Of a DNA stretch of 64,000 bases, positions 3,862 to 42,610 are shown one piece after another (position 1 is the first letter of the stretch; every line of letters starts with the position of its first letter). This stretch comes from an uncultured Nitrosopumilales archaeon (GTDB lineage: Archaea; Thermoproteota; Nitrososphaeria; Nitrososphaerales; UBA213). The notes beneath the pieces are model-generated. The model was not told the DNA's origin. It searched no databases and saw only the letters and a program-made list of their open reading frames with translations. The position numbers and the translations under genes were made by a program. The stretch covers positions 10,480 to 74,479 of the forward strand of contig CAYJSN010000003.1 of NCBI GenBank assembly GCA_964373125.1, in the 5' to 3' direction.

Positions 3862-5442
3862 ATGCAGATAATCGGAAGAGGCACCTGGCTCGACAAGGTT
3901 GCAGCAAAGCTTGTGGAGCGTGAGAAAAAACTCTCGCGCGACCTCTCGCTGCTCAGGGTCGAGAGCGGGCTCGGCGCATCAGGCATACCGCACATCGGCA
4001 GCCTCGGCGACGCAGTGAGGGCCTACGGCATAAAGCTCGCGCTGGAAAACATGGGACACAGATCAGAGCTCGTCGCGTACTCGGACGACATGGACGGGCT
4101 CAGGAAGGTCCCGGAGGGCCTGCCGGATTGGCTGAAGGAGCACATCGCCAAGCCGGTATCCACCATTCCCGACCCGTTCGACTGCCACCAGTCCTACGGC
4201 GCCCACATGAGCGGCCTGCTGCTGGATGCCCTCGACCGGATTGGTATTAAGTACAGGTTCCAGAGCGGCGCCGATGCCTACAGGAGCGGCCTGCTGGCGA
4301 AGCAGATCGACACGCTGCTCAGCAACGCGCAGAAGATAGGTTACAAGATCGAGGAGATGGTGGGGCAGGAGAAGTTCACAGCCGCACTTCCGTACTTCCC
4401 GGTCTGCGAGAGCTGCAAGCGCATCTACGTTGCGGAGGCCTATGAGTACCGGAGCGCGGAGAAGAAGATACTCTACAGGTGCAAGGGTACAAGGATCGGG
4501 AAGGAGATGATCGAGGGCTGCGGCCACGAGGGCGCGGCCGACATACGCACCAATTCCGGTAAATTGAGCTGGAAGGTGGAGTTCGCGGCAAGGTGGCAAG
4601 CCTTCGACATCAGGTTCGAGGCCTACGGCAAGGACATAGCTGACTCGGTCAAGGTTAATGACTGGGTCGCTGACGAGATCCTGGGCTACCCGCACCCGCT
4701 GCATGTGAGGTACGAGATGTTCCTAGACAAGGCGGGCAGGAAGATATCCAAGTCGCTCGGCAACGTCCTCACGCCGCAGGCCTGGCTCAGGTATGGTACA
4801 CCGCAATCGATAATGCTGTTGCTCTTCAAGCGCATAGTGGGAACCAGGCACATCGGGCTGGACGACGTCCCCAAGCTGGTCGATGAATATGACTACTTGG
4901 AGGACGTTTACTTTGACAAGGTGAAGATAGACAACGAGATGAAGCGCGCAAAGCTCTCCGGCATCTACGGATACATCAACCACCTGAAGCCACCGGCAGC
5001 CCCGTCGCAGCACGTCCCGTACATGCTGCTGGTCCAGCTCGCATCCGTGGCAAGGGATGAAGGTAGAACTGATTACGTTGTGAACCGGCTGAAGAGCTAT
5101 GGGTTGATCAAGGAGAAGAGCGACGACCTTGTTAGCAGGATACAGCTTGCTGGCAACTGGGCCGACGACTTTGGCGGCTTCGAGAAGGCCGAGGTCACAG
5201 TCGGCGATGCGGAGCGCAGGGCGCTGGTCGAGCTCATCGACCTGATAAGGAGGGAGGGCGATCCCAAGATACTGCAGACGAACATATTCGAGATCGCGCG
5301 CAGGAACGGCCTGGAGCCGAAGGACTTCTTCAGGCTGCTCTACAATATTCTGGTGGGTGCCGACAAGGGACCGCGCCTGGGCCCGTACATAGTGGATGTC
5401 GGCAGGGATAAGATCGCAGAGGTCTTGGGCAAGCACGTTTGA
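3862..5442 (+). CDS. lysK: Lysyl-tRNA synthetase, class I
   Basis: 526 aa. HIGH-like GIPHIGSLGD, KMSKS-like RKISKSLGN and a Cys cluster CESCKR...C...C typical of archaeal class I LysRS. Sits 8 nt after elp3. Confidence 0.9.
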   Translation: MQIIGRGTWLDKVAAKLVEREKKLSRDLSLLRVESGLGASGIPHIGSLGDAVRAYGIKLALENMGHRSELVAYSDDMDGLRKVPEGLPDWLKEHIAKPVSTIPDPFDCHQSYGAHMSGLLLDALDRIGIKYRFQSGADAYRSGLLAKQIDTLLSNAQKIGYKIEEMVGQEKFTAALPYFPVCESCKRIYVAEAYEYRSAEKKILYRCKGTRIGKEMIEGCGHEGAADIRTNSGKLSWKVEFAARWQAFDIRFEAYGKDIADSVKVNDWVADEILGYPHPLHVRYEMFLDKAGRKISKSLGNVLTPQAWLRYGTPQSIMLLLFKRIVGTRHIGLDDVPKLVDEYDYLEDVYFDKVKIDNEMKRAKLSGIYGYINHLKPPAAPSQHVPYMLLVQLASVARDEGRTDYVVNRLKSYGLIKEKSDDLVSRIQLAGNWADDFGGFEKAEVTVGDAERRALVELIDLIRREGDPKILQTNIFEIARRNGLEPKDFFRLLYNILVGADKGPRLGPYIVDVGRDKIAEVLGKHV

Positions 5443-5482
5443 TCGGCTCAATCTTTTAATCTCCCGGAGATGAAGCTCGCGT

Positions 5483-6280
5483 GTGATCCGCTTCAGGTAC
5501 ATGCATCTCTACGCCGAGCCGTCCTCGTCCACGCTAGATATCGATGCCATCAGCGATTACATCACCAGCATGGTAAAGTGCGAGGTGGACGTCAGGAAGG
5601 AGTTCTTCACGCACTTCCTGCCACGTGATAAGGCCGACCATGCTGCGAGAGAGATGGCGGCCGCTAGGGTCTTCAATACGCGCATGCCGTATGCGAGGCA
5701 CGAGCCCTCCGCCGAGGATGCGGAGCTGGAGAAGACGATCCTCTCGGACCCGGGCAGGAGATACTTGGAGCACATCTACGACGGCTTCGAGGCCCAGAAG
5801 ATCCTGGAAGCGCTGATCCCCGCAGAAGAAAATAGCCTCGACCACGTGCACATCGCATTCACCAACAGGCTGCTCTGCACCTACAGCTGGGACGACCTCA
5901 GATACCACTACCGGACGATAATATGCGGCTATCCCTCGATCATCTGCACGAGCGGCATAGTTGAAGCACCGGCAAAGCCGAGGGAGTTCTACCTGCTCTA
6001 CAACTACTATGCATCGATGGGCATGGCCAGCGTGGAGGAGCTGAAGAAGAAGTTCGAGGGCCGGTTCATAGACTACGACGACCCGAGGCTGACCGAGGTC
6101 GTGAAGGGCTTCGTGCTGCAGGCCGTATTCTATTATCTTGTGGGCGATCCTTTTTGCGAGAAGAAGGATTGTAGATTGCTTAATGCCCACTGGCAGGAAG
6201 ATATGATAGAATCGCAGCTGAAGCATGGAAGATTGTGTGACGAGCATCTGAATACGATAAGAAAGCTTGGCAGGCAGTAA
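5483..6280 (+). CDS. Conserved-looking hypothetical protein with a C-terminal Cys/His cluster
   Basis: 265 aa with good coding composition. C-terminal GDPFCEKKDCRLLNAHWQ...HGRLCDEH suggests metal binding. Start could be GTG 5483 or ATG 5501. Family not recognised. Confidence 0.5.
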   Translation: MIRFRYMHLYAEPSSSTLDIDAISDYITSMVKCEVDVRKEFFTHFLPRDKADHAAREMAAARVFNTRMPYARHEPSAEDAELEKTILSDPGRRYLEHIYDGFEAQKILEALIPAEENSLDHVHIAFTNRLLCTYSWDDLRYHYRTIICGYPSIICTSGIVEAPAKPREFYLLYNYYASMGMASVEELKKKFEGRFIDYDDPRLTEVVKGFVLQAVFYYLVGDPFCEKKDCRLLNAHWQEDMIESQLKHGRLCDEHLNTIRKLGRQ

Positions 6281-6413
6281 CGCCCGCGCTTGCGGATGAT
6301 ATAGGGGGTATTCAAATACTCTGCAGGATAAATTCATACTTATGAGAGCTGGGTATTGGAGGAATTGTATGGACCGCCCTTTGGTTGAACAGACTGTGAT
6401 GCGATGATGCGGG

Positions 6414-6605
6414 CTACTGCTCCTCGATTGTCTTTAGGTCGCGGTTCAGGAGCTCGATCATCTTCGGGATCTCCTTCGGCGCGCACTGCAGGCAGTACTT
6501 CTGGAACGAGCTGGGCAGCGTGAAGTACCTCTGATTATACTCGATATTCTTCCTGCACGACGTGCATATGGTCTGCTTGTGCGGGTTGGTGTTCTTTACG
6601 ATCAA
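6414..6605 (-). CDS. Small zinc-ribbon-like protein (63 aa)
   Basis: CTSC...(28 aa)...CLQC arrangement; isolated ORF. Confidence 0.45.
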   Translation of the reverse strand: MIVKNTNPHKQTICTSCRKNIEYNQRYFTLPSSFQKYCLQCAPKEIPKMIELLNRDLKTIEEQ

Positions 6606-6651
6606 CGCAGAGAGATGTTTGAAGCTTCGATAAATACCTCACCCAGCTAAG

Positions 6652-6658
6652 TTAATAT
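6652..6658 (+). promoter_or_regulatory. TATA box for tRNA-Arg
   Basis: TTAATAT centred 27 nt upstream of tRNA position 1 (6682). Confidence 0.4.
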
Positions 6659-6681
6659 CTTGCACGGCTGAGCTTTGAACC

Positions 6682-6798
6682 GGGCCCGTGGCCTAGTCAG
6701 TTGTGCGTCTTCGTAATTAATCGGGGGGCATGACCTAGCGAGGATATGGCGGGAGCTTGCGGAGCTCCAGGACGAGGGATCGAAGCCCTCCGGGCCCG
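6682..6798 (+). tRNA. tRNA-Arg (anticodon GCG) with a 42-nt intron in the D-loop
   Basis: Acceptor GGGCCCG/CGGGCCC with discriminator G. Anticodon arm GGAGC-TTGCGGA-GCTCC (U33, GCG, G37). T arm GAGGG-ATCGAAG-CCCTC. D arm GCCT...TGGC is interrupted. Removing 6699-6740 gives a 75-nt cloverleaf. No encoded CCA. Confidence 0.8.
6699..6740 (+). other. Non-canonical (D-loop) tRNA intron, relaxed BHB (HBh') fold
   Basis: Central helix CTAG 6693-96 / CTAG 6735-38. 5' bulge TCA 6697-99, 3' bulge CGA 6739-41. 7-bp inner helix 6700-06 / 6728-34. Cutting after the second bulge nucleotide yields D-loop AGUCAGGAUA. Confidence 0.6.
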
Positions 6799-6800
6799 CT
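6779..6800 (+). repeat. Direct repeat copy 1 (3' end of tRNA-Arg; att-like)
   Basis: ATCGAAGCCCTCCGGGCCCGCT, identical to 7336-7357 and 8224-8245. Confidence 0.95.
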
Positions 6801-6859
6801 ATCTAACCAAACGTTCTTCGTGTAAATTTATATACAAACAGCAAGAGTCTTACCTAACT

Positions 6860-7066
6860 ATGACTTCGCAGCCAAGCGTCAAAGATATCATGAAGGAAAT
6901 CAGAGTGATTCGAGGTAAGATAGACAAGTTAGAAAACATTGTTGAAAAAAGACTGATTGGTGAAGGAAAACCCGATAAATATGAAAAGAAGGCCGTTGCT
7001 GAATTTGAGAAGAAAAGAAAGTCTGGCAAACTAAAATTTGTACCTTTGGCTGAGCTAGAGGAATAA
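6860..7066 (+). CDS. Putative antitoxin (aRelB-like coiled-coil protein, 68 aa)
   Basis: ATG 6860; the track ORF start at 6746 would overlap the tRNA. Small, charged and helical. Ends 4 nt before the RelE-family toxin gene. Confidence 0.5.
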   Translation: MTSQPSVKDIMKEIRVIRGKIDKLENIVEKRLIGEGKPDKYEKKAVAEFEKKRKSGKLKFVPLAELEE

Positions 7067-7070
7067 TCAT

Positions 7071-7325
7071 TTGGCATTCAAGGTTCTTATAGAAAAGAGA
7101 GCGGCAAAGCAACTAGACGGATTACCTGTTGATATTAGGAACAGAATTATCAACGCCTTGAAGGAACTTGAAAAGGGATTCTCTGCTAGGCTTGACATAA
7201 ATAAGCTCAAAGGAACCAAGAATCATTATAGAATTAGAGTTGGCGATTATAGAATTCTGTTTGTCTTGGAATCGGATACTACATATGTTTATGATGTTTC
7301 TCATAGAAAGAGCGTGTACAAGTAG
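7071..7325 (+). CDS. RelE/ParE-family type II toxin
   Basis: 84 aa. ...AKQLDGLP..IRNRIINALKEL...LKG..NHYRIRVGDYRILFVLE...YVYDVSHRKSVY is a typical RelE/StbE pattern. Confidence 0.8.
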   Translation: MAFKVLIEKRAAKQLDGLPVDIRNRIINALKELEKGFSARLDINKLKGTKNHYRIRVGDYRILFVLESDTTYVYDVSHRKSVYK

Positions 7326-7335
7326 AGAACGATTG

Positions 7336-7357
7336 ATCGAAGCCCTCCGGGCCCGCT
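7336..7357 (+). repeat. Direct repeat copy 2 (tRNA-Arg 3' end)
   Basis: Perfect 22-nt copy. Upstream ACGATTG versus tRNA ACGAGGG destroys the T-stem, so it is not a tRNA. Followed by the partial copy CACTCCAGCGATCGAA (7358-7373). Confidence 0.95.
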
Positions 7358-7453
7358 CACTCCAGCGATCGAAATGTTAGATGAAACCACAAACAGTGCA
7401 AAGATTCAATCCATGTCAAGAGCAAACAATATATCATGGCATTCTGCTATAAA

Positions 7454-7696
7454 ATGGTGATTAACTTGGAGATGGTGATTAAGGACATTGACGAACAGGG
7501 AAGAGTCATAATTCCAAAGGAATTAAGAAAGAAATACAAGATAAAGGAGAAGGTGATTATAAGATCAGGTGAGGGTAAAATTGAACTCATACCGCTTGAA
7601 GAAAAAGAACTTGCAAAGTTTTTTGATTTGGCTACTGCAGATATCAAGACCGATCTGTCAGATTGGCACAAGATAAGGAAAGAAGTACGGAAATGA
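7454..7696 (+). CDS. AbrB/SpoVT-family antitoxin (VapB-like)
   Basis: DEQGRVIIPKELRKKY swapped-hairpin motif. Start is ambiguous (ATG 7436, 7454 or 7472); 7454 fits a leaderless start about 26 nt after the TATA. Its stop overlaps the VapC start (ATGA). Confidence 0.75.
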   Translation: MVINLEMVIKDIDEQGRVIIPKELRKKYKIKEKVIIRSGEGKIELIPLEEKELAKFFDLATADIKTDLSDWHKIRKEVRK

Positions 7697-8112
7697 GATT
7701 TGTTGACGCAAGTGTTTTTGTTCATGCATTCATCAAGCCTAGGCGAAGACTGAAGCCTCATGAACAGCGAATAAAGAAGAATGCGAAGCATATAGTGAAG
7801 AGAATAGATTCTGGAGAAGAAATTGCTATCAGCACGGTGCATCTGTCAGAAGTTGCCAATATACTGGAGGATTTCATGCCATTCAGGAGCGCTTTAGAGA
7901 TTGTAACATCATTAATATCAAAACCAAGTATTACGCTTCTAAATGTTACTGGCAAGGATTGCATAAAAGCAGTGTTAATAGCACAAACAGATACGATCGG
8001 GTTTACTGACGCAATAGCATGTGTACTCATGTCTGAAAGCAAGACAAGAGAAATCTACTCCTTTGATAGAGACTTTGACAAAGTAAAGGACATTAAGCGT
8101 ATTAGTGAATAA
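7693..8112 (+). CDS. vapC: PIN-domain ribonuclease toxin VapC
   Basis: MRFVDASVF... with conserved acidic residues (D5, E in SEVANILE, D in FTDAIA, D in SFDRDFD). ATG 7693 overlaps the antitoxin stop. Confidence 0.85.
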   Translation: MRFVDASVFVHAFIKPRRRLKPHEQRIKKNAKHIVKRIDSGEEIAISTVHLSEVANILEDFMPFRSALEIVTSLISKPSITLLNVTGKDCIKAVLIAQTDTIGFTDAIACVLMSESKTREIYSFDRDFDKVKDIKRISE

Positions 8113-8223
8113 CCACGGATCCAATTAACATATTATCTTAGAATATATTAAAGGCAGATTTATGAGTAATTAAACATGCGAAAAAATAATATCTGTAAAA
8201 ACAGGGCGCCACACGCTCCAGCA

Positions 8224-8245
8224 ATCGAAGCCCTCCGGGCCCGCT
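8224..8245 (+). repeat. Direct repeat copy 3 (tRNA-Arg 3' end)
   Basis: Perfect 22-nt copy. Upstream GCTCCAGCA mimics the anticodon-stem 3' strand with the variable/T-stem part deleted. The downstream flank CTATCTAC resembles the flank of copy 1 (ATCTAAC). Confidence 0.95.
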
Positions 8246-8290
8246 CTATCTACTAAGGAAATACCGCCAATCTACTGGTAAGGCGGCCCT

Positions 8291-8734
8291 CTATTTGATA
8301 TTATTTTCCAACTTTCCAAGAGGCCGTTTCCAGATTCCTAGTCCTATCAACACAACCGCACCGATAGTAAACACCGACCCAACAACTAATACTTCGTTAG
8401 GACGCTGAATTAATCTCGAAGTGAGAGAAACTCCGAATACGATTATAAGAATAATTGCGTAAATGAGAGCGCCGTTAATAAGCAATAATGTGGATACCGC
8501 AAAAGAAGGTTCTTTTCTTTCAACTACAAAACCAATTATAGACATTATTATCGCGCCGCCAGCGAATACATTTGCTCTTGTTGCTTCATTAAATGGAAGG
8601 AACCCTGCAAGTTCCTCATGCTCTTCACCAGCCTCAACTGGATGACTAGATTCCATCAACTCATCTGCAGCGTAAATGATAAGGAGTATCAAGGACGCAA
8701 CCAGCAATGCCATGGAAATGCTTATTTTAGTCAT
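8291..8734 (-). CDS. Membrane protein (about 4 TM segments), hypothetical
   Basis: 147 aa, hydrophobic segments separated by short loops. Lies in an AT-richer stretch continuous with the cassettes. Confidence 0.5.
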   Translation of the reverse strand: MTKISISMALLVASLILLIIYAADELMESSHPVEAGEEHEELAGFLPFNEATRANVFAGGAIIMSIIGFVVERKEPSFAVSTLLLINGALIYAIILIIVFGVSLTSRLIQRPNEVLVVGSVFTIGAVVLIGLGIWKRPLGKLENNIK

Positions 8735-8777
8735 GGTCGGTGACCGGTTCGATCCATAGTATGAGAATATTTAAGAT

Positions 8778-9506
8778 TTAGGTTAGCTTCAGATGCAACT
8801 TACCCCAGTCGTCTGGAGCCGCTAGGACGTCCTTTATCGTTGGCGAACCTATGGCAAACTGTTTTCCGCCCGAATTTGCGGGCCATTCCACAAAGTTGTT
8901 ATGGTAACCATCACTCACGTAAAGATAGAACCGCATCTTTTCCTCGAAGCCGTAAGGCCCGGTGGGAATCTTCAACTCGTAACTCACATGCCCGTTCTTA
9001 TCATCGTATGGGCTGGAGTGCGAATAACCGATTCTGGCAAACCTGTCCACCAGTTTGGCATCCTGAATAATAACCCATCCACTGCCGCTACCCTGCATTA
9101 TGCCGCTCGTGGTGCGGCCTGTCCTTGTAGCCGCATAAAAACAGTAATCATCCTCAAGGGGAACATTCCCATCATCGCTCTTTGTATCAAAGCAGGCTAC
9201 GGCTAGATCCCTGCTCCTGTCAAGGCCCTGGTCTGAGACAAAGTCGATAAGTATGTACAGAAATCTTTCATTATATTTTGCCCTGAGGTATGCCATCAGC
9301 CCATCCGCTACGATCTTGGTTTCGCTAGCATCGAGCCACTCTGTTTCGGTGCTCCATACCCCGTCTATCTCTACTGGGTTTGCAGCCTTTGATATGACAA
9401 GAACTTCCTCATTTTTACCAAATGACGGCCCTAGCGCTGACGGCGTTAGCATCAAAATTATCAAGGGCAGAAGCAATGTCACCCTTATCGGTATGTGAGA
9501 TGCCAA
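8778..9506 (-). CDS. Secreted protein, CBM9/DOMON-like fold suspected
   Basis: 242 aa. N-terminal signal-like LLLPLIILMLTPSALG. The motif PVEIDGVWSTETEWLDA resembles the start of CBM9/DOMON-type domains. Family assignment is tentative. Confidence 0.45.
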   Translation of the reverse strand: MASHIPIRVTLLLPLIILMLTPSALGPSFGKNEEVLVISKAANPVEIDGVWSTETEWLDASETKIVADGLMAYLRAKYNERFLYILIDFVSDQGLDRSRDLAVACFDTKSDDGNVPLEDDYCFYAATRTGRTTSGIMQGSGSGWVIIQDAKLVDRFARIGYSHSSPYDDKNGHVSYELKIPTGPYGFEEKMRFYLYVSDGYHNNFVEWPANSGGKQFAIGSPTIKDVLAAPDDWGKLHLKLT

Positions 9507-9621
9507 CCTAGTTTATTACCAAGCACAACTATTTGACTGTTGCATCAATTCGCTCCCGGCGATCAACCGGTCGTGTTTAGATAATTAAATTCAAGGCTTG
9601 ACGAAAGTTCGCCGTGCAAAA

Positions 9622-10038
9622 TCAGAGCAGGAGCAGCGACCTGAAGGTATCCGTCATTGCCCTCTGCAGGTCGCGCTGTGTTACTATTCCTACGTATCTA
9701 TCATTTTCCTTGACCAAGAGTCTTCGTATCTTGTGCCTGATCATCATCTCTGCCGCGTCCCCGATGGTTTTGATCGAATTTATGCTGATCAGCGGCTTGC
9801 TCATTACCACCTCAACCGGCGTGTCGGGCCTTACGGCCTTCCTGTAGGCTAGAGACTTGAGGATGTCCCGCTCTGTCACTATGCCCACCGGCCTTCCCTG
9901 CGAGGTGATCACGACGGAACCCACGCCCTTGCGAACCATCGTCTTGATTGCGGACCTTATACGCAGGTCCTTCTCGATCGAGATCATGTCTTTGCTCATT
10001 ACCGCCCTTACCCTCACTGTAACATTGAGAGCCATCAA
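9622..10038 (-). CDS. CBS-domain pair protein
   Basis: 138 aa. Two CBS repeats (VMSKDMISIEKD...GIVTERDILK and VMSKPLISIN...GIVTQRDLQRA). Confidence 0.8.
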   Translation of the reverse strand: MMALNVTVRVRAVMSKDMISIEKDLRIRSAIKTMVRKGVGSVVITSQGRPVGIVTERDILKSLAYRKAVRPDTPVEVVMSKPLISINSIKTIGDAAEMMIRHKIRRLLVKENDRYVGIVTQRDLQRAMTDTFRSLLLL

Positions 10039-10138
10039 ACGCCCAATGCAGCAGCCTATCTATAAAGAATACTAATGCCTGAAACCATCTTAAATCGGCC
10101 TTGGATAGTTTAAGTTTGGGACTCGACGAAGGTTTGCC

Positions 10139-11389
10139 GTGTGCAAGATTAACAGCGTGATGGCTGTCCTCGCAGCAGCAGCACTGGTAACATCGCTTTA
10201 TACAACACTCAGCCTCGAACAGGCGGCGGCGGAGGAACCGAAAGATTCTGGCATCTCCGTGGCCGTCAAGCACAAGAAAAAGGTATCGCTGCTCGCGGTC
10301 AAGAACAACGGAAGCGAAGAGATATTCGGCGTGCGGATAGACATCGAGAACGGAAAGATCAAGTCTGTAAGCGCCAGGGGATGGGACCGTGATAGAATAG
10401 AGATGAACGCGGTAATCGTGCAGACGGGCGACAAATCCCTCCTGCCGGGCAGGTCGATGATAATCCTGCTGATAGTCGATAACAAGGACTCCCCGCTCGG
10501 GTGGGCAGTATTCGGCAAAAATAACCACACGATCGCGAGTTCGGGCCCTGAAATGGACAGAAAGGTGATCAGCCGCAAGATCGGCGAGATGAACATGCGG
10601 GGAAGGGCCGAGGCGGAATCCGGCAAATACAAATCCGCATATGCAGTGAATAACTGTCCCGGCTGCAAGATCGCGCTCGTAAGGCCGATATTCACAGACA
10701 CGGCATACACGGACGCGTTCTACGTGTTTTACGAGCTGCATCAAAACGATACCGCGACATCGGAAGACCTGTCCTACCTCACCGCGGTGGTCAAGGATAC
10801 ATGGCTGGGCATTCAGTGGAGTTCCTACAAATTCTTCAAACCTTGGCTTGAAAATAATACGATCAACCTGATTACGGACATCGAGGTGCATCTAAACAGG
10901 ATCCAGCAGTACGACAAGATAATACTACTGCACAGCGAGTACGTGACGCAGCAGTACTATGACAACCTGCGCGAGTGGGTCAGCAACGGCGGCACCATGA
11001 TCCTGGTGGACGGAAACGCGCTTTACGCCGAGGTGGAGTACGGCCAGACTGCTACAAAAGCAATGATAAGGCTCAGTAAGGGACACGGCTGGGAGTTCAA
11101 CGGCACCCTTGCTGTGCAATCAGTTAAGGAAAGATGGCTGGAAGAGAACAAGGAGTTCATCGGCAGCCACTTCGGCGGCATAGGCAGGTACCACGAATAC
11201 AACGTCATCGCGAACGATGCAGCAACATGCCTGAAGGAGTGGGACCGGACGCCGGAGGGCAGGGTCTGCACCTACAAATTCCAATATGGCAACGGTACGA
11301 TATACCACGCGGGCATATTCGGGAGCCTCTTCATAGACGAGCTGCCAGAGCTGCGGCAGATGTTGCTGGAGTTTCTGCAGCTGGGCTAG
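10139..11389 (+). CDS. Exported hypothetical protein
   Basis: 416 aa. N-terminal hydrophobic signal/anchor (AVLAAAALVTSLY). Start is GTG 10139 or ATG 10160. No recognisable catalytic motif. The long antisense ORF 9812-10891 is treated as a shadow. Confidence 0.55.
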   Translation: MCKINSVMAVLAAAALVTSLYTTLSLEQAAAEEPKDSGISVAVKHKKKVSLLAVKNNGSEEIFGVRIDIENGKIKSVSARGWDRDRIEMNAVIVQTGDKSLLPGRSMIILLIVDNKDSPLGWAVFGKNNHTIASSGPEMDRKVISRKIGEMNMRGRAEAESGKYKSAYAVNNCPGCKIALVRPIFTDTAYTDAFYVFYELHQNDTATSEDLSYLTAVVKDTWLGIQWSSYKFFKPWLENNTINLITDIEVHLNRIQQYDKIILLHSEYVTQQYYDNLREWVSNGGTMILVDGNALYAEVEYGQTATKAMIRLSKGHGWEFNGTLAVQSVKERWLEENKEFIGSHFGGIGRYHEYNVIANDAATCLKEWDRTPEGRVCTYKFQYGNGTIYHAGIFGSLFIDELPELRQMLLEFLQLG

Positions 11390-11425
11390 AAACCACTTTA
11401 AGAGCCCTCCGCCAGTATCGAGTCA

Positions 11426-12274
11426 GTGAGGTTTCAGGACAAGGTAGTCGTTGTAACTGGGGCTAGCTCTGGAATAGGCAAGGCAACCGCAATCAGTTTA
11501 GCTAAGACAGGCGCGACTGTTGTTATTGTATGTAGAGATGAGAAGCGGGGCGAGGCAGCATTAAATGAGATTAAGAAAAGTGGGAACGAATCAGTGTCCC
11601 TAATGGTAGCAGATCTTGCATCACAAAAATCGATATGCAGGCTCGTACGGGACTTCAGGCGCAACTATAACCGTCTGGATGTTTTGATCAACAATGCCGG
11701 GGTCTTTCTAGCAAGGCGCGCCCTGACCGAAGATGGAATAGAGTCGGCCTTTGCAATAAACCACCTGGCTCCTTTCTTGCTGACAAATCTGCTAATCGAT
11801 GTTCTAAGATCGAGCGCCCCTTCACGTATCGTGAATGTTTCTTCAAGTGCGCACTACAGGGGCCGCATAGACTTTGATGATATTCAAGGAGAAATTAACT
11901 ACAGCGGGATCAAGGCGTACAGTCAGTCCAAGTTAGCGAACGTATTATTTACCTATGAACTGGCAAGGAGACTTGAGGGAAGCGGCGTGACGGCCAATTG
12001 TCTTCATCCCGGGGCGGTTCGCACAAATTTGGTACGTCTCGATTCCGGGATTTATGGCTTGATCTGGAAGATGCTGGGCCCCTTGATGCCAGGTGCAGAG
12101 AAAGGCGCCGATACGTGTATCTACCTGGCGTCATCCCCTGAAGTGGAAAGTATCAGCGGGAAATACTTTGTGAAGAGAAGGAATGTCGTATCTTCAGAAG
12201 AATCGTATAACGAGGCAATTGCTAAGAAGCTATGGCAGGTAAGTGCCGAGCTGACGGGTCTTGAACAAACCTAA
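11426..12274 (+). CDS. Short-chain dehydrogenase/reductase (SDR)
   Basis: 282 aa. TGASSGIGKATA cofactor motif, NNAG, and catalytic YSQSK. Confidence 0.85.
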   Translation: MRFQDKVVVVTGASSGIGKATAISLAKTGATVVIVCRDEKRGEAALNEIKKSGNESVSLMVADLASQKSICRLVRDFRRNYNRLDVLINNAGVFLARRALTEDGIESAFAINHLAPFLLTNLLIDVLRSSAPSRIVNVSSSAHYRGRIDFDDIQGEINYSGIKAYSQSKLANVLFTYELARRLEGSGVTANCLHPGAVRTNLVRLDSGIYGLIWKMLGPLMPGAEKGADTCIYLASSPEVESISGKYFVKRRNVVSSEESYNEAIAKKLWQVSAELTGLEQT

Positions 12275-12332
12275 CATGCTTTAGTTAATTCTTCAGTTAC
12301 TGGAATCTCGACAAGATTGTTTTGCAAGGTAA

Positions 12333-13046
12333 TCAGGTGATGTCGTACCAGCGGTCCGTGTCCTTGACCTTGCGCATCTCGTTATCCACAGCTTCGGCCA
12401 TAACGTCGAGCTCGCTGAGCGCGCCGAACTTCAGGTAGGTCAGCCTCTCCAGCGTCTGCAGCACGCTCTTCGCCGCCCTGTACTGGGGTATCCGCGGTTC
12501 GGTTATCTCGCCGTAGAGCCCGATCCCGAGGATGTCGTTCGTCTTGGCGAAGCCCAGGACGAGGCCGTTGAAGCCGGTGATCAGCGACGAGCCGGGGGTA
12601 GGCTCGATGCCGAGCTTGCCGATCTTCTCGGCCAGCTCTTGGGTGGTCGCGGTAAAGAATGTCTTCGGCTCGTTGCCGATCTTCCTGTCCGTGTGAAACG
12701 CGCCCAGAGTGTAGACCAGCTGCGCCGAGTGGGCCCTAGCAACGCCGATGACATCCCCGCATAGATCGTATAGCTCCCTGTTGGTCTGAGGCTGGCCAGC
12801 CCCGCCGCCGAAGACTATCATGTCCTTGCTGTACCTGTACTCCCACCTCTGCCGCTGGTACTCGATGTGCCCGCCCTTGTCCACCACGTAGTCGGGGTAC
12901 GGGACCGAGATGTGCCTGAAGGGGCGCGTGCCCAGGCTCTTGTTGATCTGATCTACTGCTATGCTTGCGACGTTGCCCATATCCTGCATGGCCGCGATGA
13001 GTATCGGCCTGCTCAGGTCGGGCTTCTCGACCTCCGTGACTTCCAC
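12333..13046 (-). CDS. PAC2 (proteasome assembly chaperone 2)-family protein, tentative
   Basis: 237 aa. The pattern PILIAAMQDMGNVASIAVD...FGGGAGQP...ITGFNGLVLG resembles archaeal PAC2/PbaA-like proteins. Assignment is by recollection only. Confidence 0.45.
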   Translation of the reverse strand: MEVTEVEKPDLSRPILIAAMQDMGNVASIAVDQINKSLGTRPFRHISVPYPDYVVDKGGHIEYQRQRWEYRYSKDMIVFGGGAGQPQTNRELYDLCGDVIGVARAHSAQLVYTLGAFHTDRKIGNEPKTFFTATTQELAEKIGKLGIEPTPGSSLITGFNGLVLGFAKTNDILGIGLYGEITEPRIPQYRAAKSVLQTLERLTYLKFGALSELDVMAEAVDNEMRKVKDTDRWYDIT

Positions 13047-13095
13047 ATCAGGTATTCCAAGGTAAGTGATTTAAAAGTTGATGCCCAAACAGGTC

Positions 13096-13938
13096 TTATT
13101 CGGCCGAGAGGTCCCAGTAGTTTGCGTCCTTGACTATCTCGGTGGGCAGGCCCAGCGACTTCCACTCCTTCAGTGACCTGGCATATAGCTTGACGTTCCT
13201 GTGCCCTGCCAATAGCAAGCCGTAGTATGCAAGCCCGGAGAGCGTGCCTACGCTGCCGCAGTAGGTGATCACCTCGCCGCCGTCGGGTATCCCACGGTTC
13301 TTCAGCAGCCGCCTCAGCTCCTCGCCGCTCCTCAGGATGCGGTCCTCGCCGGAGAAGGTCTTCCAGGGTATGTTTATCGCCTTCGGTATGTGGTGGTCGA
13401 GGTAGTTCAGCCTCTCCCTCGAGTCCAGCAGCGTCTTGCCGTCGCTCCCGATCGAGGTGTTGACATAATCTGCCGTTGCCAGTATGCCGTTGTTGAGCCG
13501 GAGGGAGTGGGCCTTCTTCGGATAGACGTTCTTCTTGCGCTCCACCTCCAGCCCCAGCGACTTCCAAGTGCCGTAGGTAACGGCGAGCAGCGAGACGTCC
13601 CGATGCCCGATGTACTCGAGCGTCCATGCCACCCGGGCGGCCAGGGCCCCGAAGGTATCGTCGTAAACCACGACGTGGGTATCGTCGTCTATCCCGGCCC
13701 TGCCATACACCTCGGCAACCTGCTCCATGTTCTGGGCGTTCAGGACATCGGCCAGCGGGATCGACACCGCGCTTGGGATGTGGCCCTTCCTGTACTCCTC
13801 GGGCTTCCGTACATCGACGACACGCACACGCTTCTTCCGGATTGCTTCAAGTAGATCGCGTGGCTCGATGAGGATCGGGTGCTTCCTTGGGCCCGGGCCT
13901 GAGACCTGCTGCTCGCCCGACTGGGTCAAGCCGCACAT
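13096..13938 (-). CDS. Rhodanese-family sulfurtransferase (two rhodanese domains)
   Basis: 280 aa. VVDVRKPEEYRKGHIPSAV in domain 1 and the active-site loop YCGSVGTLSG in domain 2. Its start overlaps the stop of the upstream sulfite reductase by 13 nt. Confidence 0.8.
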   Translation of the reverse strand: MCGLTQSGEQQVSGPGPRKHPILIEPRDLLEAIRKKRVRVVDVRKPEEYRKGHIPSAVSIPLADVLNAQNMEQVAEVYGRAGIDDDTHVVVYDDTFGALAARVAWTLEYIGHRDVSLLAVTYGTWKSLGLEVERKKNVYPKKAHSLRLNNGILATADYVNTSIGSDGKTLLDSRERLNYLDHHIPKAINIPWKTFSGEDRILRSGEELRRLLKNRGIPDGGEVITYCGSVGTLSGLAYYGLLLAGHRNVKLYARSLKEWKSLGLPTEIVKDANYWDLSAE

Positions 13939-15728
13939 TCGCCCCTAGCTGTCTTTGCTGTGAACGCACGGTCGTTGCCGTAGTCCATGTAGGAATCGGG
14001 GCTCTCCTCCGGGCTCGGCAGTTTAGCAGCCTCGTCAACCACCCGCTTCAGGTCGTCGTTGTTCTTCACGGCTGATGTTCCTGCACCACGCATGACCCGG
14101 CTTACCCACTGCGGGAAGCTCTCGCCGGCGCCGCGCTCCTGTTTGTAGATGTCCAGCATCCTCAGGAGTACGTCGATCACCTTCTTTGCCGGCACCCTCG
14201 TGAGCATCTTGCCCAGCGTGGCGTTCTCGCCCGTGCTTCCTCCGATGAGCATGTTGTAGGTGGGCGCCAGCGTGTTGCTGACCCTCGACGCGCCGCCGTA
14301 GAAGCCGACCGTGGCAACCTCGTGCTGGCCGCATGAGTTGGGGCAACCGCTTATCTTTATCGTGGCGTCCATCAGCCCGTCCTCGGTGTCAAGGCCCAGC
14401 TCCAGGAACTTTGCCTGGATCTCCTTTGCCAGCCTGTGGGAGTTTGTTATCGCAAGGTTGCAAGACGTGGTGCCCGTGCAGCCGACCGCCGAGGCTATGG
14501 TGAGCGCGCCGGGATTCGCAAGCCCGGACGCCACGAGTTTCTGATATAGTTCCGGCAGGTCGGACTTCAAAACCCACCTGAGCACGAAGTTCTGGTTGGT
14601 CGTCGTGCGCACGCATCCCTCCGCCGAGAACTCCCTGCATATCTGGGCAAGCGCCCTGAGCTGGCGCGAAGTTATGTCTCCTGCCTGCAATGTGACAAAT
14701 GCCATCACGTAGCCGCGCTGCCTCTGCTCCACGACATTCGTAGCAACCCACCTCTGGTATCCGGACGGGTAGGACGAGGATTCGTGTGACACGATCGAGG
14801 GCGCCTCGCTCGGGTACTGTATCTCCTCCGGCACGAGCTTCACGGCCGTCGACTTGGTCGCATTGACTATCATGCGCTCTTTCAGGACCAGCTGCTGGAA
14901 CTTCGCAAAGCCCATATCATGGACCAGGTACCGCATCCTGTTCCTGTGCATCTTCTCCCTGTCGCCCAGCCTGTCGAAGAGCCTGACCGTCGCCATGCAT
15001 GTGGGCAGGACCTTGTCCATCGGGGTGAACTCCTCCAGGGGCTCGGCTATGAACGAGGCCGGGCCGAGGCCGCCGCCAAGGTATATCCTGAAGCCACGTA
15101 CCTCCTCGCCGTTGATCTCCCTGACAGCGGGAACGAGCCCGATGTCTGCTATCCTGACCAGGCTGTGCTCCTCGCAGCAGGCGAAATTAAACTTGAACTT
15201 CCTGGGCAGGTTCTGGTTCATCGGGTTCCTGAGGAAGAACCTTGCCACAGCATTGGCGTATGGCGTCGCGTCGAACGCCTCGGCCGCACAGACGCCCGCA
15301 TAGGGGCTGCAGACGATGTTCCTGATCGTGTTACCGCAGGCCTCCCTGGTCGTGAGCCCGGCCGATACCAGGCCGCGTATGGCCTCCGAGACATCGTCGA
15401 GCTGGACCCAGTGCAGCTGCACGTTCTGCCTGGTGGAGACGTGGGCACTACCTATTGAATAAGCATCGCTGACGTATCCAAGCTTCTCCAGCTGCTCGGG
15501 CGTGAGTATGCCCGAGGGAATCTTCACGCGCACCATGCTGTAGTCGCTCTGCATCCTGGAGCCGTAGGTACCGTTCTGGAGCCTGAACCGGCGGAACTCT
15601 TCCTCGCTGATCTTCTTCTGCCTGAAGAGCTTCACGATCTCTGCGAAGGTGTCGACCTCTTCCTCCCTCCCCCACTTTGCCGAATGTGTCCTGATGCGGA
15701 GCGGCCTGCTCTGGGCACGCCTCTTCAT
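13926..15728 (-). CDS. Ferredoxin-type sulfite (or nitrite) reductase, siroheme/[4Fe-4S] hemoprotein
   Basis: 600 aa. Duplicated NiR/SiR ferredoxin-like halves and Cys cluster GCTGTTSCNLAITNS...CPNSCGQHEVATVGFYG. Confidence 0.85.
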   Translation of the reverse strand: MKRRAQSRPLRIRTHSAKWGREEEVDTFAEIVKLFRQKKISEEEFRRFRLQNGTYGSRMQSDYSMVRVKIPSGILTPEQLEKLGYVSDAYSIGSAHVSTRQNVQLHWVQLDDVSEAIRGLVSAGLTTREACGNTIRNIVCSPYAGVCAAEAFDATPYANAVARFFLRNPMNQNLPRKFKFNFACCEEHSLVRIADIGLVPAVREINGEEVRGFRIYLGGGLGPASFIAEPLEEFTPMDKVLPTCMATVRLFDRLGDREKMHRNRMRYLVHDMGFAKFQQLVLKERMIVNATKSTAVKLVPEEIQYPSEAPSIVSHESSSYPSGYQRWVATNVVEQRQRGYVMAFVTLQAGDITSRQLRALAQICREFSAEGCVRTTTNQNFVLRWVLKSDLPELYQKLVASGLANPGALTIASAVGCTGTTSCNLAITNSHRLAKEIQAKFLELGLDTEDGLMDATIKISGCPNSCGQHEVATVGFYGGASRVSNTLAPTYNMLIGGSTGENATLGKMLTRVPAKKVIDVLLRMLDIYKQERGAGESFPQWVSRVMRGAGTSAVKNNDDLKRVVDEAAKLPSPEESPDSYMDYGNDRAFTAKTARGECAA

Positions 15729-15793
15729 ATTACGCAGATCACCGTCTATACAATATAAACTTTCGAAAGATGTATTAGGAAAAAGATTAAAGA

Positions 15794-16462
15794 ATGGTCG
15801 TGACGATTTCTGTCAACCGCCTCACCCTGTCGATGGAGATCTTCTTCAGGAACGCCGTCCTGCAGGACAACAAGAGCTTTGCCGAGGCTTTTGACAGGAA
15901 CGGTTTCAAGCTGTCCTACGGCACGCCGGAGTCGCCGGTAATGGCAAGGGAGGCGTTCACGGTGCGGCTGGGCAAGGCGCCCAAGGTCAGGGGGAGGGCG
16001 ATAAACGTCGCGGCTCTCTCGGTGGCCCCCAAGGACATAGCCAGGTTTATCGACCACATAATGAGCGTGAAGACGATACTCGCAAAAGAGCTCGGGCTCG
16101 ATCTGGAGCAGGAGTTCACGAGCTGCTCGCTGATCGCGAACGCCTGGGTCCACACGGACAACAACGCGGAGTCGGTCCTGAGCAGGCTGAAGGACATCAA
16201 CGGCATCGAGGATCTGAGGGGATTTGTATCACACAGGACTCCCTTCGCCAAGCTTGAGTTCGTCTCCGAATCCGCGCGGGGCCTGCTCGACTACGACGAG
16301 TGGCAGAAGATGGAGATCGACTCCACGCCAGAGGGGGAGTACCTGCTCTCGCTCCATCATAACGGCAGCTCGCTCGAGGGAACGACCGCGTATCTTGGGA
16401 AGATGGGCGAGAAGATAACATCGGTCATAGGCGCGATCGAGTCCAAGGTTCTGCAGTCATAG
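15794..16462 (+). CDS. Hypothetical protein (222 aa)
   Basis: Intact ORF with ordinary soluble-protein composition, divergent from the sulfite reductase gene. The overlapping ORFs are Arg/Pro-rich shadows. Confidence 0.5.
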   Translation: MVVTISVNRLTLSMEIFFRNAVLQDNKSFAEAFDRNGFKLSYGTPESPVMAREAFTVRLGKAPKVRGRAINVAALSVAPKDIARFIDHIMSVKTILAKELGLDLEQEFTSCSLIANAWVHTDNNAESVLSRLKDINGIEDLRGFVSHRTPFAKLEFVSESARGLLDYDEWQKMEIDSTPEGEYLLSLHHNGSSLEGTTAYLGKMGEKITSVIGAIESKVLQS

Positions 16463-18508: not shown

Positions 18509-18817
18509 TCACCGGCGCTTAGGAGCAGACCTTTCAGTTTTTTCAGCTGCATCAGCAGCTGCTTGTGCGGTCGCTGCCAATGCTTTAGCGGCAGCTATCA
18601 GGTCAGCCATCTCAGCCGGATTTTCTGTTGCAACCTCGGCTAATTGTGCAGCGGCTCTAGCCGCTGCCTGAGCAGCTTCGGCTGCTTGCGCGGTTGCCTG
18701 TACAGCTTTGGCAGCGCGAGGATTATCTTTCGCGGCGTCTGATGCTCTTTTAGCCACTTGTTCTGCTGCTCGTGCTGCTTCGGCTGCTTGCTTCGCAAAA
18801 TCTGCAGGAGACGACAT
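18509..18817 (-). CDS. Alanine-rich repetitive helical protein, hypothetical
   Basis: 102 aa, mostly A/Q/E/K, with two similar segments around DNPRAAKAVQATAQAAEAA and ENPAEMADLIAAAKALAATAQAA. The TATA-like ATTTAAG lies about 29 nt upstream of the ATG. Low-complexity sequence, so coding status is uncertain. Confidence 0.4.
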   Translation of the reverse strand: MSSPADFAKQAAEAARAAEQVAKRASDAAKDNPRAAKAVQATAQAAEAAQAAARAAAQLAEVATENPAEMADLIAAAKALAATAQAAADAAEKTERSAPKRR

Positions 18818-19226
18818 TGAATATTATATACACGCCGTGGCTCTTAAATCTTAGCTGATAAAAATTCGGATGAATTCTGCAATCTACATGTTATGACTGT
18901 GATATTGTGGGAGATTTTTGAGAACTATTGGTGGTCTTCTCAAAATAAGTCGATTGTATGATCATCTTTTAATGCCTACATTTTAACCGGCGCACGGTGT
19001 GGTTGAGGTAGCATGAATAGCAATTAATCACTAGCGATGCGAAAATTACAGATGCCGAAAGCGTCCTATGAAATTTGTTTATTGGTTTGAACGGTGGCCC
19101 CCACCAAATTCATTCCCGCTTAGTAAAATCGGAGCCATATTAGGAGAGCACCAATCCCGTCACATCTGGTCCGAATTTCGTTCAATTTTATACCGGTACC
19201 CGACGGGCCCACGTAAAATGAATTAT

Positions 19227-20357
19227 CTACAGCTTTGTCAGGCTTATCTTCTTGAGCCTTGTTACAACGATCATCGCAGCCACTACTGCTACCATAATTG
19301 CCGCTGCTCCAAATGGAAACTCAGGAACTACTACTAGATCGAACTCTGCCTTCTCTATTATAGCCTCACTGATACCGCCACCAAGAGAAAAGGTGCCTAG
19401 ATAGGTTACTTCCACATGCACCCTACCCGCGGATTCGAAGGTAACCTCGTGGATTCTCTGCCCAGTATTCTCTACCTTATACACAACCTTTCCCGCTGCA
19501 TCAGTTATCTCCAGGTCGTACCTCGGATTAGGGAGAGTTTTGCCCCTGGTATCGGTGATGGTCACCTCGAGCTGCACGGTCTGGCCAGGCTCCATCGTCT
19601 CCGGGTTCCAAGAGAGATCTACGACGAAGGTAGCAGAGTTTGTATGTTTGCTCAGCGGTGGTTTTGGCACCACCAGCTTCGCCTCTGGGGGTTCTGGAGG
19701 TGTATCTGTGATCCTTGTCTCTAACAGCTCATACTCGAACAGGACCGGTATCGGGTGCTGAGATACCAGTGCGAAAACCTTCGCCTTTACCGGGAATGGA
19801 AAATTATCGCTTATCCAGAAAGTACTGTCAACGGCGTAGTGAAACCCTACCAGAGATGTGTCCCATGACTTGCCAGCCGCATCGATCGTTTCGCTTCCTA
19901 CCGGATGCACGATTATGCCCCCGCCTCCCAATCCGGCTATCACGCCCCAGTTTTCAAAACCAGTAAGCGCCTTGGGGTTTATCTTTGAAGCATAGCTGCT
20001 TAGCCATGCGAGTGTCTGGTCTATCACCCCTGCATAGGGTCGGAATTCTTCAGAGATGGAACCTATAGGCTCCAGTGTCAGCGATGCAAGCAGCAACTCC
20101 TCGGTTACCACCTTACCCTCGTCCTCAACTATCGTGAAGGCCTTCCAGTTATCCTTCTCGTCCCTAGACTCTAACAAGATGGTTACATCTATCGGCTGGC
20201 TCTTCTTGTAATCGAAGAACGCGATCCTGTACTTCATTAAAAGGCCCTCCTGCGCACCATCTCCGGGATACCATTCACCCTGCGCATAGGCTGCTTTGGT
20301 TGCAAGGATACCGGATCCCAGCAAGATGCCCATCAATGCATACGTCCAGTACCTCAT
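19227..20357 (-). CDS. Exported protein with PEFG-CTERM-type tail
   Basis: Start moved to ATG 20357 (MRYWTYALMGILLGSGILATKAAYA signal peptide). The track start at 20513 adds 52 non-signal residues. C-terminal VVPEFPFGAAAIMVAVVAAMIVVTRLKK. Ig-like beta-rich C-terminal half. Confidence 0.65.
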   Translation of the reverse strand: MRYWTYALMGILLGSGILATKAAYAQGEWYPGDGAQEGLLMKYRIAFFDYKKSQPIDVTILLESRDEKDNWKAFTIVEDEGKVVTEELLLASLTLEPIGSISEEFRPYAGVIDQTLAWLSSYASKINPKALTGFENWGVIAGLGGGGIIVHPVGSETIDAAGKSWDTSLVGFHYAVDSTFWISDNFPFPVKAKVFALVSQHPIPVLFEYELLETRITDTPPEPPEAKLVVPKPPLSKHTNSATFVVDLSWNPETMEPGQTVQLEVTITDTRGKTLPNPRYDLEITDAAGKVVYKVENTGQRIHEVTFESAGRVHVEVTYLGTFSLGGGISEAIIEKAEFDLVVVPEFPFGAAAIMVAVVAAMIVVTRLKKISLTKL

Positions 20358-30207: not shown

Positions 30208-30241
30208 AAGGCTTAAGAAATACTGCATTATAACTCACTCA

Positions 30242-30673: not shown

Positions 30674-30683
30674 GTGGCCTGAG

Positions 30684-42107: not shown

Positions 42108-42157
42108 CTCTTCCTGCCTCCCTACTCAATCACAGTGGGACGGGTATAAAAGAATAG

Positions 42158-42604: not shown

Positions 42605-42610
42605 GAGTTT

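Follow-up and report, generated by a model that had tools for sequence, protein, structure and literature searches.

The routes by which toxin-antitoxin (TA) modules pass from one archaeal genome to another are poorly known. The closest described archaeal systems are the elements found in tandem at tRNA genes of Sulfolobales and Thaumarchaeota (Krupovic et al. 2019, PMC6563490); those integrated in Thaumarchaeota have attachment (att) sites with a median length of 17 bp, 57% of the integrations lie in tRNA genes and others at the 3' ends of protein-coding genes, and the smallest cryptic element reported measures 2.6 kb and encodes an integrase (PMC6563490). Further systems that invite comparison are the cis-mobilizable elements (CIMEs) of Streptococcus and other bacteria (PMC5704250), the gene cassettes of integrons (PMC9668308), and the dif modules of Acinetobacter plasmids together with the integrative mobile elements exploiting Xer (IMEX), which are thought to be shuffled by a recombinase that the host supplies (PMC6160057, PMC6449649, PMC13141974). 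Here we describe, in a 64-kb stretch of contig CAYJSN010000003.1 from an uncultured soil ammonia-oxidising archaeon of the Nitrososphaerales, which samples ERR3478686 and ERR4904391 contain (the stretch is the window, whose coordinates count from its first base), a tRNA-Arg(GCG) gene followed by a RelBE and a VapBC cassette, each bounded by copies of the 3' end of that tRNA. We read the locus, at a probability of about one half, as TA mini-elements in tandem, each with an att site but no integrase, which a tyrosine-recombinase-type reaction in trans inserted. Our literature searches brought up no account of archaeal TA mini-cassettes bounded by att sites.

With the archaeal tandem elements the locus has in common the repeats of the tRNA 3' part, short att sites, re-use of one site and foreign composition, and one related locus described below recalls their integration into the 3' ends of protein genes; the thaumarchaeal elements, however, encode an integrase, whereas the units here measure 0.5-0.9 kb, are integrase-less, hold a TA operon only and recur in other genomes. 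Like CIMEs, the cassettes lie between an attL and an attR, without integration or transfer genes, in tandem at the 3' end of a gene, and like them they could move when an element with a matching integrase inserts alongside. CIMEs, in contrast, are bacterial, usually several kb long and visibly deletion products of integrative conjugative or mobilizable elements, while the units here are minimal, repeatedly of the same size and without trace of a parent element, and no helper was found. Integron cassettes likewise form arrays of small units that end in recombination sites, include TA modules with their own promoters and change neighbours, but integrons have IntI, attI and a structured attC, whereas the ends here reproduce in sequence the 3' end of the tRNA or gene that serves as target. 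The dif modules and IMEX are also small, often TA-encoding, bounded by short sites and devoid of a recombinase; dif sites, however, bind XerC/XerD, alternate in orientation and lie on plasmids, whereas here direct copies of a tRNA 3' end lie on a chromosome and nothing indicates XerA. By analogy, the locus appears to behave like a CIME, dif-module or integron-cassette system while being a member of none.

Results

A tRNA-Arg(GCG) gene and two TA cassettes bounded by copies of its 3' end

The features of the array are the following.

6682-6798, plus strand: tRNA-Arg(GCG) gene whose D-arm region is interrupted by a non-canonical intron of ~41 nt, the presumed integration target (attB/attL side)
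6779-6800, plus strand: att core copy 1, made up of the T-loop, 3' T-stem, 3' acceptor strand, discriminator and 2 nt of the real tRNA
6801-7335, plus strand: cassette 1, 535 bp, GC content 0.364, between copies 1 and 2, with a RelE pair only
6824-6835, plus strand: archaeal promoter-like AAATTTATATAC, TATA-like, upstream of the operon
6860-7066, plus strand: 68-aa putative antitoxin, by position only
7071-7325, plus strand: 84-aa RelE/ParE-family toxin, Pfam PF05016 (ParE_toxin), 1.3e-8
7326-7357, plus strand: orphan att copy 2, the perfect 22-mer at 7336-7357 after diverged tRNA-like AGAACGATTG
7358-8223, plus strand: cassette 2, 866 bp, GC content 0.373, between copies 2 and 3, with an AbrB/PIN pair only
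7358-7373, plus strand: left-end partial repeat CACTCCAGCGATCGAA
7447-7454, plus strand: TATA-like CTATAAAA upstream of vapB
7472-7696, plus strand: vapB, AbrB/MazE fold, PF04014 (MazE_antitoxin), 3.4e-6
7693-8112, plus strand: vapC, PIN toxin, PF01850, 1.2e-11
8172-8245, plus strand: cassette 2 end element, 74 nt, ending in orphan copy 3 (8224-8245)

The 22-mer ATCGAAGCCCTCCGGGCCCGCT was found exactly three times in the window, always on the plus strand (6779-6800, 7336-7357 and 8224-8245), and it had no match in 100 dinucleotide-preserving shuffles even when up to three mismatches were allowed. A repeat finder lengthened the family imperfectly to 32 nt, over which copy 2 is 91% and copy 3 is 81% identical to copy 1. 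Neither ARAGORN nor Rfam (at gathering thresholds) called a tRNA anywhere in the 64-kb window; when 40-47 nt were excised from the D-arm region, ARAGORN called a tRNA-Arg(GCG) over 6682-6798, where a perfect acceptor stem (GGGCCCG/CGGGCCC), a GCG anticodon arm and the T-arm GAGGG-ATCGAAG-CCCTC can be followed by eye. Judged by these features, the window holds at least one functional-looking tRNA-Arg(GCG), concealed from the finders by a D-arm insert of about 41 nt. The repeats are direct and of att type, with three perfect copies of which copy 1 completes a foldable tRNA-Arg(GCG), while copies 2 and 3 are orphans and not tRNAs, because the 5' strand of the T-stem is absent from both. A first-pass annotation of the stretch, made from the letters alone, had reported the three direct 22-mers, their origin in a tRNA-Arg end and the imperfect extension of copies 2 and 3 into the tRNA body; all of this is borne out, and the anatomy fits the frame in which it was placed, namely integrative elements that duplicate the 3' end of a tRNA.

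Comparison with other genomes, here and below by loci numbered L001 onwards from genomes and metagenomes, placed this tRNA among its kin. Its 3' half is 93%, 94% and 92% identical to the Nitrososphaerales tRNA-Arg(GCG) genes of L026, L039 and L027; the matching genes lie 3' of the lysyl-tRNA synthetase (LysRS) gene in three of those loci, and the tRNA of L150 matches as well. Among 185,579 species representatives the exact 22-mer occurs at 40 loci, all from ammonia-oxidising archaea (Nitrososphaeria) and mostly named Nitrososphaerales, the nearest showing 65-70% identity in the upstream LysRS and ELP3 genes. At every one of the 40 it is preceded by the 5' strand of the T-stem and forms the 3' end of a genuine tRNA-Arg, belonging to three isoacceptors (anticodon regions GCG, TCT and TCG), and none of these loci, a set outside which the window's own species falls, contains a second copy, exact or degenerate. 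Since the 22-mer at these 40 loci always lies within a genuine tRNA-Arg and has no extra copies, the orphans are not members of a dispersed repeat family; such membership is what the first-pass annotation had named as fatal to its interpretation.

At 1759-1785 of the window, after a GCTACA/TGTAGC hairpin, GTTGTAGCGAATCCCGCCAGGCCCGCT shares 20 of 27 positions with the tRNA-Arg 3' end. Removing single introns did not lead to a tRNA call there; the segment may belong to a tRNA that is split or has several introns, or may resemble one by chance.

Gene content of the two cassettes

The perfect copies bracket the two intervals, and open reading frames (ORFs) and Pfam matches confirm that each interval contains a TA pair alone, with its own TATA-like box. 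In cassette 1 a RelE/ParE-fold toxin follows a small gene in one predicted operon, the arrangement of RelBE; besides its Pfam match, the toxin matches Methanocaldococcus jannaschii RelE3 in the PDB (3bpq_B, 1.5e-11) and also Pyrococcus horikoshii aRelE, so that its fold family would be that of archaeal aRelE/RelE3. Profile searches gave no antitoxin or other match for the 68-aa protein, whose gene is the conserved upstream partner of the toxin gene in four loci. Because no antitoxin profile matches, its identity as antitoxin follows from position only; of the aRelB-like/RelE pair proposed earlier, the RelE half therefore stands and the aRelB-like half is reduced to a positional assignment. At the nucleotide level cassette 1 is 77.7% identical to its counterpart in L150, 77% to that in L137 and 76% to that in L145, and the AAATTTATATAC-type promoter motif is kept in L137, L145, L150 and L154.

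Cassette 2 likewise has the predicted make-up of its family, VapBC, as had been proposed: a PIN toxin follows an AbrB/MazE antitoxin, the two genes overlap by 4 nt (ATGA stop/start), and the acidic residues D5, E42, D106 and D125 of VapC show little or no variation among 15 close homologues. Such close homologues of VapC (67-92% identity), and those of RelE (57-100%), are found almost solely among metagenomic proteins. An inner repeat noticed in the first reading is present at both ends of the cassette (CACTCCAGCGATCGAA at 7358-7373 versus CGCTCCAGCAATCGAA at 8214-8229), whereas the likeness of the flank after copy 3, CTATCTAC, to the ATCTAAC that follows copy 1 can be seen but covers just 6-7 nt, too short to count. 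The right end of the cassette is a 74-nt element that includes tRNA-like GCTCCAG..ATCGAA without the 5' T-stem strand, and in which DNA folding revealed no significant hairpin. This element is homologous to L042 1350-1423, and a 73%-identical copy of it stands at L042 2029-2102 after an unrelated DUF2283 cassette. An end element common to unrelated cassettes fits the product of site-specific recombination between attP and attB.

Composition of the array and the search for a recombinase

As expected of integrated DNA, the two intervals are foreign in composition: their GC contents of 0.364 and 0.373 are the lowest in the window and compare with 0.557 and 0.570 in the flanks, which agrees with the AT-richness noted at first sight. 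To find enzymes that could move them, we scanned 39 different ORFs of the window (37 with Pfam, 9 with NCBIfam). The scan returned no recombinase or integrase, including IntI, as the first-pass annotation had stated, and no Cas1 or casposase-like gene. The intervals thus carry no integrase of their own, each holding just two small TA genes, and neither contains an integrase pseudogene or other element debris; no further att-like copy lies downstream of copy 3.

Nor could a source outside the window be found. No parent backbone of the cassettes turned up in viral, plasmid or genome collections; in viral contigs, relatives of RelE reached just 42-48% identity and relatives of VapC were lacking, and INPHARED phages and PLSDB plasmids gave no DNA match. 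Searches with the att sites were no more productive: an orphan-specific degenerate pattern had no match in the metagenome collection and one in the viral contigs, which lies inside a phage gene and was attributed to chance, and two matches of a relaxed att core in viral contigs were dismissed as chance in high-GC phage DNA.

The first-pass annotation had likened the cassettes to those of integrons, and a true integron, in which an IntI encoded elsewhere captures cassettes through a folded attC and the tRNA end serves as attI, would account for an array of small, TA-rich cassettes such as chromosomal integrons contain; integrons do occur in Archaea (PMC9668308). We nonetheless hold it to be highly improbable. 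IntI is absent beside the array and from the ORFs scanned, the cassettes bear their own promoters, and the repeats copy the target and are not cassette-specific imperfect palindromes. Moreover, four cassette ends, the window's two on both strands (six folds), fold no better than shuffled sequence (z -1.0 to +1.2), so that, with neither IntI nor attC-like hairpins, the likeness to integron cassettes is an analogy only.

The same cassettes behind other tRNA genes

Related cassettes in other genomes, set beside those of the window, have the following anchors, repeats and spacings.

Window RelBE: behind tRNA-Arg(GCG); perfect repeat of 22 nt; spacing 557 nt
Window VapBC: behind att copy 2; perfect repeat of 22 nt; spacing 888 nt
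L150-L154 RelBE (GC content ~0.41): behind the syntenic tRNA-Arg(GCG) 3' of LysRS; repeat of 29 nt with 2 mismatches; spacing 566 nt
L137/L138 (GCA_975198805.1) RelBE, 76% amino acid identity: behind a different, intron-bearing tRNA; repeat of 33 nt with 3 mismatches; spacing 570 nt
L046 (GCA_030157145.1) VapBC, 79% amino acid identity: behind tRNA-Glu(CTC); repeat of 20 nt with 1 mismatch; spacing 901 nt

In the RelBE units behind two different tRNAs, 23-26 nt separate the left repeat from the promoter, and 7-10 nt separate the stop codon of the toxin gene from the right repeat. No isotype could be assigned to the L137 tRNA, probably on account of two introns. As a control, the longest repeat bracketing a VapC gene was 13 nt in the 64 loci of the metagenome scan with enough flank, which are mostly VapC homologues of ~50% identity from other organisms.

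The VapBC cassette of the window also recurs within a different array. It is 86.5% identical at the nucleotide level to a cassette that spans ~880 nt in L042, where the order of the array (L042-L045) is HicB/HicA, VapBC and a DUF2283 pair; the homology begins just past the preceding att-like core and ends exactly at ...CCCGCT, and the flanks are unrelated. In L052 (JGI 3300037479, Ga0394879_0014987), positions 4900-15894 hold at least six TA-type pairs (PIN, MazE/PIN, PemK, two VapB/PIN and others), between which at least five incomplete copies, 36-177 nt long, repeat the 3' end of the gene for a 1101-aa surface protein (7377-10682, minus strand); among them is a 55-aa C-terminal pseudo-fragment at 14382-14549. 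As in integrons, then, discrete cassettes appear in differing orders and contexts (window versus L042; L052). Taken together, these comparisons are good evidence, drawn from a handful of loci, that the cassettes are modules.

Two observations concern the sites themselves. At L046 9494-9589 the T-loop and the 3' T-stem of the tRNA-Glu(CTC) are apparently separated by an insert of ~14-16 nt. Since the last 4 nt of this insert open the 20-nt repeat, intron sequence would belong to the att site. At L145 6256-6310 a T-arm/acceptor-like orphan (TGAGGAATCGAACCCTCAGGATTCG) follows the RelBE cassette; neither an intact tRNA nor a clear matching repeat was found to the left of that cassette, which may represent a decayed site.

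The repeats around one cassette body come from the neighbouring tRNA, be it Arg, Glu or a third, and have no att-like sequence in common. This raises the possibility that they are long target-site duplications, left by a staggered cut and fill-in in the manner of Cas1 or casposase around a cassette that has no att site of its own and could insert behind any tRNA. Casposons are present in Thaumarchaeota, in tandem at gene 3' ends (PMC6563490). Duplications of this kind should, however, come with terminal inverted repeats and a fixed length, as in transposons, miniature inverted-repeat transposable elements and casposons, and we found neither: none of eight cassettes had inverted repeats at its termini that were significant after correction for eight tests (shuffle p 0.05 and 0.07, the others 0.28-0.96), and the repeats vary in length (15, 20, 22, 29, 33 and 50 nt, up to 167 nt). 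A fresh duplication would also not be expected to place diverged tRNA-like sequence on the left side of a perfect block, as seen here (AGAACGATTG; GCTCCAG..ATCGAA). The 74-nt end element common to unrelated cassettes likewise speaks against it, and the window ORFs scanned included no Cas1/casposase-like gene. We therefore consider target copying improbable.

The spacings bear on a third explanation, which was one of the two readings offered by the first-pass annotation: two integrase-encoding elements (plasmid, virus or cryptic element) integrated successively into tRNA-Arg(GCG), and deletions left only the TA modules and att copies, now immobile. Loss after integration is the usual account of integrase-less archaeal elements (PMC8371274), tandem integrations are known (PMC8371274; PMC6563490) and bacterial CIMEs originate in this way (PMC5704250); the failure to find a recombinase or a circular form, and the degraded att copies of L042 and L057, point in the same direction. 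Independent deletions, however, would not repeat their boundaries, whereas the RelBE units measure 557, 566 and 570 nt behind two tRNAs and the VapBC units 888 and 901 nt behind two tRNAs and ~880 nt in L042. The intervals are, moreover, free of the debris that deletions might have left, and the att cores show no mismatch, even though 13-22% divergence separates the cassettes from their nearest relatives. We rate decay, the main rival of the reading that we favour, as rather unlikely for the present state of the locus, while the cassettes may ultimately have arisen in this way. As far as minimal, TA-only cassettes as discrete units are concerned, the comparison with other genomes speaks for the second of the two earlier readings; their mobilisation in trans is what we infer.

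Empty and occupied sites, and the age of the insertions

An empty site, with tRNA-Arg(GCG) followed directly by the diphthine synthase gene dph5, is present in L023 and L027, and occupied forms behind the same tRNA hold one cassette (RelBE) in L154 and two in L150; these comparison loci are from other species and have a different downstream gene than the window. L150 and L154 represent two strains with 96.3-96.9% identity across 7 kb; they are set apart by one 629-bp unit (L150 6338-6966; L154 5334-5348), which encodes a 112-aa RHH_8 protein along with a small ORF. The repeat at its junctions is an imperfect 15-mer (AAAATCTCATTGGTA in the empty form), and the unit is also flanked by a ~95-nt, ~60%-identical duplication of the orphan att and its downstream flank. 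A supposed third degenerate att copy in L150 (~6895-6921) was rejected, as it falls within the 629-bp indel and is part of that long diverged duplication. The difference between the two loci indicates that the array behind tRNA-Arg(GCG) changes cassette by cassette, and such gain or loss of whole mini-cassettes between strains is a further point against decay.

In L022, a 50-nt orphan copy of the tRNA-Arg(GCG) 3' half lies just upstream of dph5, and at 181-335 a 51-aa ORF (MNKSYTTVTLPKALVDEL...) runs into it; the contig begins 306 nt upstream. This orphan is the probable right end of another element at the same site in a Nitrososphaeria metagenome-assembled genome.

The cassettes reached the window's host recently: they have a GC content of 0.36-0.37 in a genome of 0.56, and cassette 1 is closer to L150 (77.7% identity at the nucleotide level) than is the adjacent LysRS gene, at just 69.4%.

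Assembly breaks at these tRNA genes were also considered. A Logan contig break at the array (the end of L001, exactly at 6800, overlaps the start of L135, at 6771, by 30 nt or k-1) was rejected as evidence of a strain polymorphism: L013 is 100% identical to the window over 6750-6801, and the break is not evidence because an identical tRNA 3' half in a co-occurring species would alone branch the assembly graph. Contigs L003/L013, L025/L036 and L004/L034 of several Nitrososphaerales metagenome-assembled genomes similarly break 0-4 nt past tRNA-Arg 3' ends, with overlaps equal to the assembler k; the sequence just 3' of these genes may differ among co-assembled populations, and conservation of the tRNA across species would give the same breaks.

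Flanking genes

Upstream of the array lie genes for a zinc-finger protein, a DUF6775 protein and LysRS. Downstream, the following features adjoin copy 3.

8246-9600: flank of intermediate GC content (0.454), not assigned to the array
8291-8734, minus strand: 147-aa membrane protein without a Pfam or NCBIfam match
8778-9506, minus strand: 242-aa predicted secreted protein without a Pfam or NCBIfam match

This flank had been proposed as a third, one-ended remnant reaching to 9506, a suggestion we do not retain, as there is no att copy downstream and the GC content is only intermediate. No homology was found between the membrane protein and the one that follows the array in L042. Among 5.8 billion clustered proteins the secreted protein has just four homologues (96, 59, 54 and 51% identity), of which one carries the name Nitrososphaerales from its source. 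As the closest of them, at 96%, measures only 224 aa, translation probably begins 18 codons after the TTG assumed here. No exact-sequence record was found for the window's DUF6775 protein, VapC or secreted protein. Three further patches of lower GC content (~0.40-0.50 versus 0.55-0.60) occur at 18600-19400, 30000-31000 and 42000-43000 of the window.

Discussion

The reading that we favour is that of a tandem array of integrase-less TA mini-elements, each unit consisting of its own promoter, a type II TA operon and a short right-end site in imitation of the 3' portion of the target tRNA. The site would be attP-like, with the perfect 22-bp block as the place of crossover and diverged tRNA-like sequence on its left. 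A circular unit would recombine with the tRNA 3' end, or with an existing att copy, in a tyrosine-recombinase-type reaction; the insertion would restore the tRNA and shift the older copy downstream, and its repetition would stack the cassettes, which puts the presumed order as VapBC first and RelBE second, next to the tRNA. The recombinase would presumably come from a co-resident integrative element or virus of the same att specificity, and such a helper could ferry cassettes between cells by accretion and co-excision, the TA content making each unit hard to lose. Of this scheme, the type of recombinase, its supply in trans, the circular intermediate, the vehicle between cells and the order of insertion are parts that we infer. 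Perfect cores with a diverged tRNA-like left side give the pattern of an attP x attB crossover and not that of a uniformly decaying duplication, and repeat lengths of 15-50 nt partly overlap those of thaumarchaeal att sites (PMC6563490).

Several observations weigh against this reading. Neither the window ORFs scanned nor the viral, plasmid and genome collections yielded a recombinase, a helper element, a circular junction or an extrachromosomal carrier, and the empty sites are known from other species, none from the window's own. The sole direct case of gain or loss, between L150 and L154, concerns another cassette and an imperfect 15-nt junction, not the tRNA core. In L058 a 70%-identical VapBC pair lies between core genes with no repeats, so this TA family also moves or is fixed by other routes; and the att-like cores of L042 and L057 agree with the 22-mer at only 13-18 positions, so that the arrays there may be fossils. 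Finally, to join one cassette body to the att sites of different tRNAs, an extra att-exchange step is needed.

A wider scheme we put forward tentatively as possible but doubtful: soil Nitrososphaerales may have an integron-like way of capturing cassettes at tRNAs and gene 3' ends, with cassette bodies re-fitted to their targets. The mini-cassettes, with promoters of their own and for the most part TA pairs, would each end in a short target-like site, and a recombinase acting in trans would insert, stack, shuffle and excise them behind tRNA genes and some protein genes. In a bolder variant of such a capture system, the repeats would be copied from the target at insertion, much as a CRISPR repeat is duplicated when a spacer is acquired.

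If the favoured model of trans-inserted mini-elements is true, circular junctions should read ...AGAACGATTG-22mer-ATCTAACCAAACG for cassette 1 and ...GCTCCAGCA-22mer-CACTCCAGCG for cassette 2, the tRNA-Arg joined straight to cassette 2 should read ...GAGGGATCGAAGCCCTCCGGGCCCGCT followed by CACTCCAGCG, and the tRNA-Arg joined to the chromosomal flank ...GCT followed by CTATCTACTAAGG; variants with one cassette only, and a helper element whose attP matches, would also be expected. The cassettes themselves indicate the att specificity of the presumed recombinase.

Surveys of archaeal elements start from integrase genes, and integrase-less units are therefore invisible to them; standard tRNA finders miss intron-bearing anchor tRNAs, so routine annotation will overlook such arrays as well. 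If they are true mobile units, the cassettes would represent an archaeal counterpart of bacterial CIMEs, dif modules and integron cassettes, and would provide a concrete route by which TA modules spread and build up at integration hot spots in globally important ammonia oxidisers.

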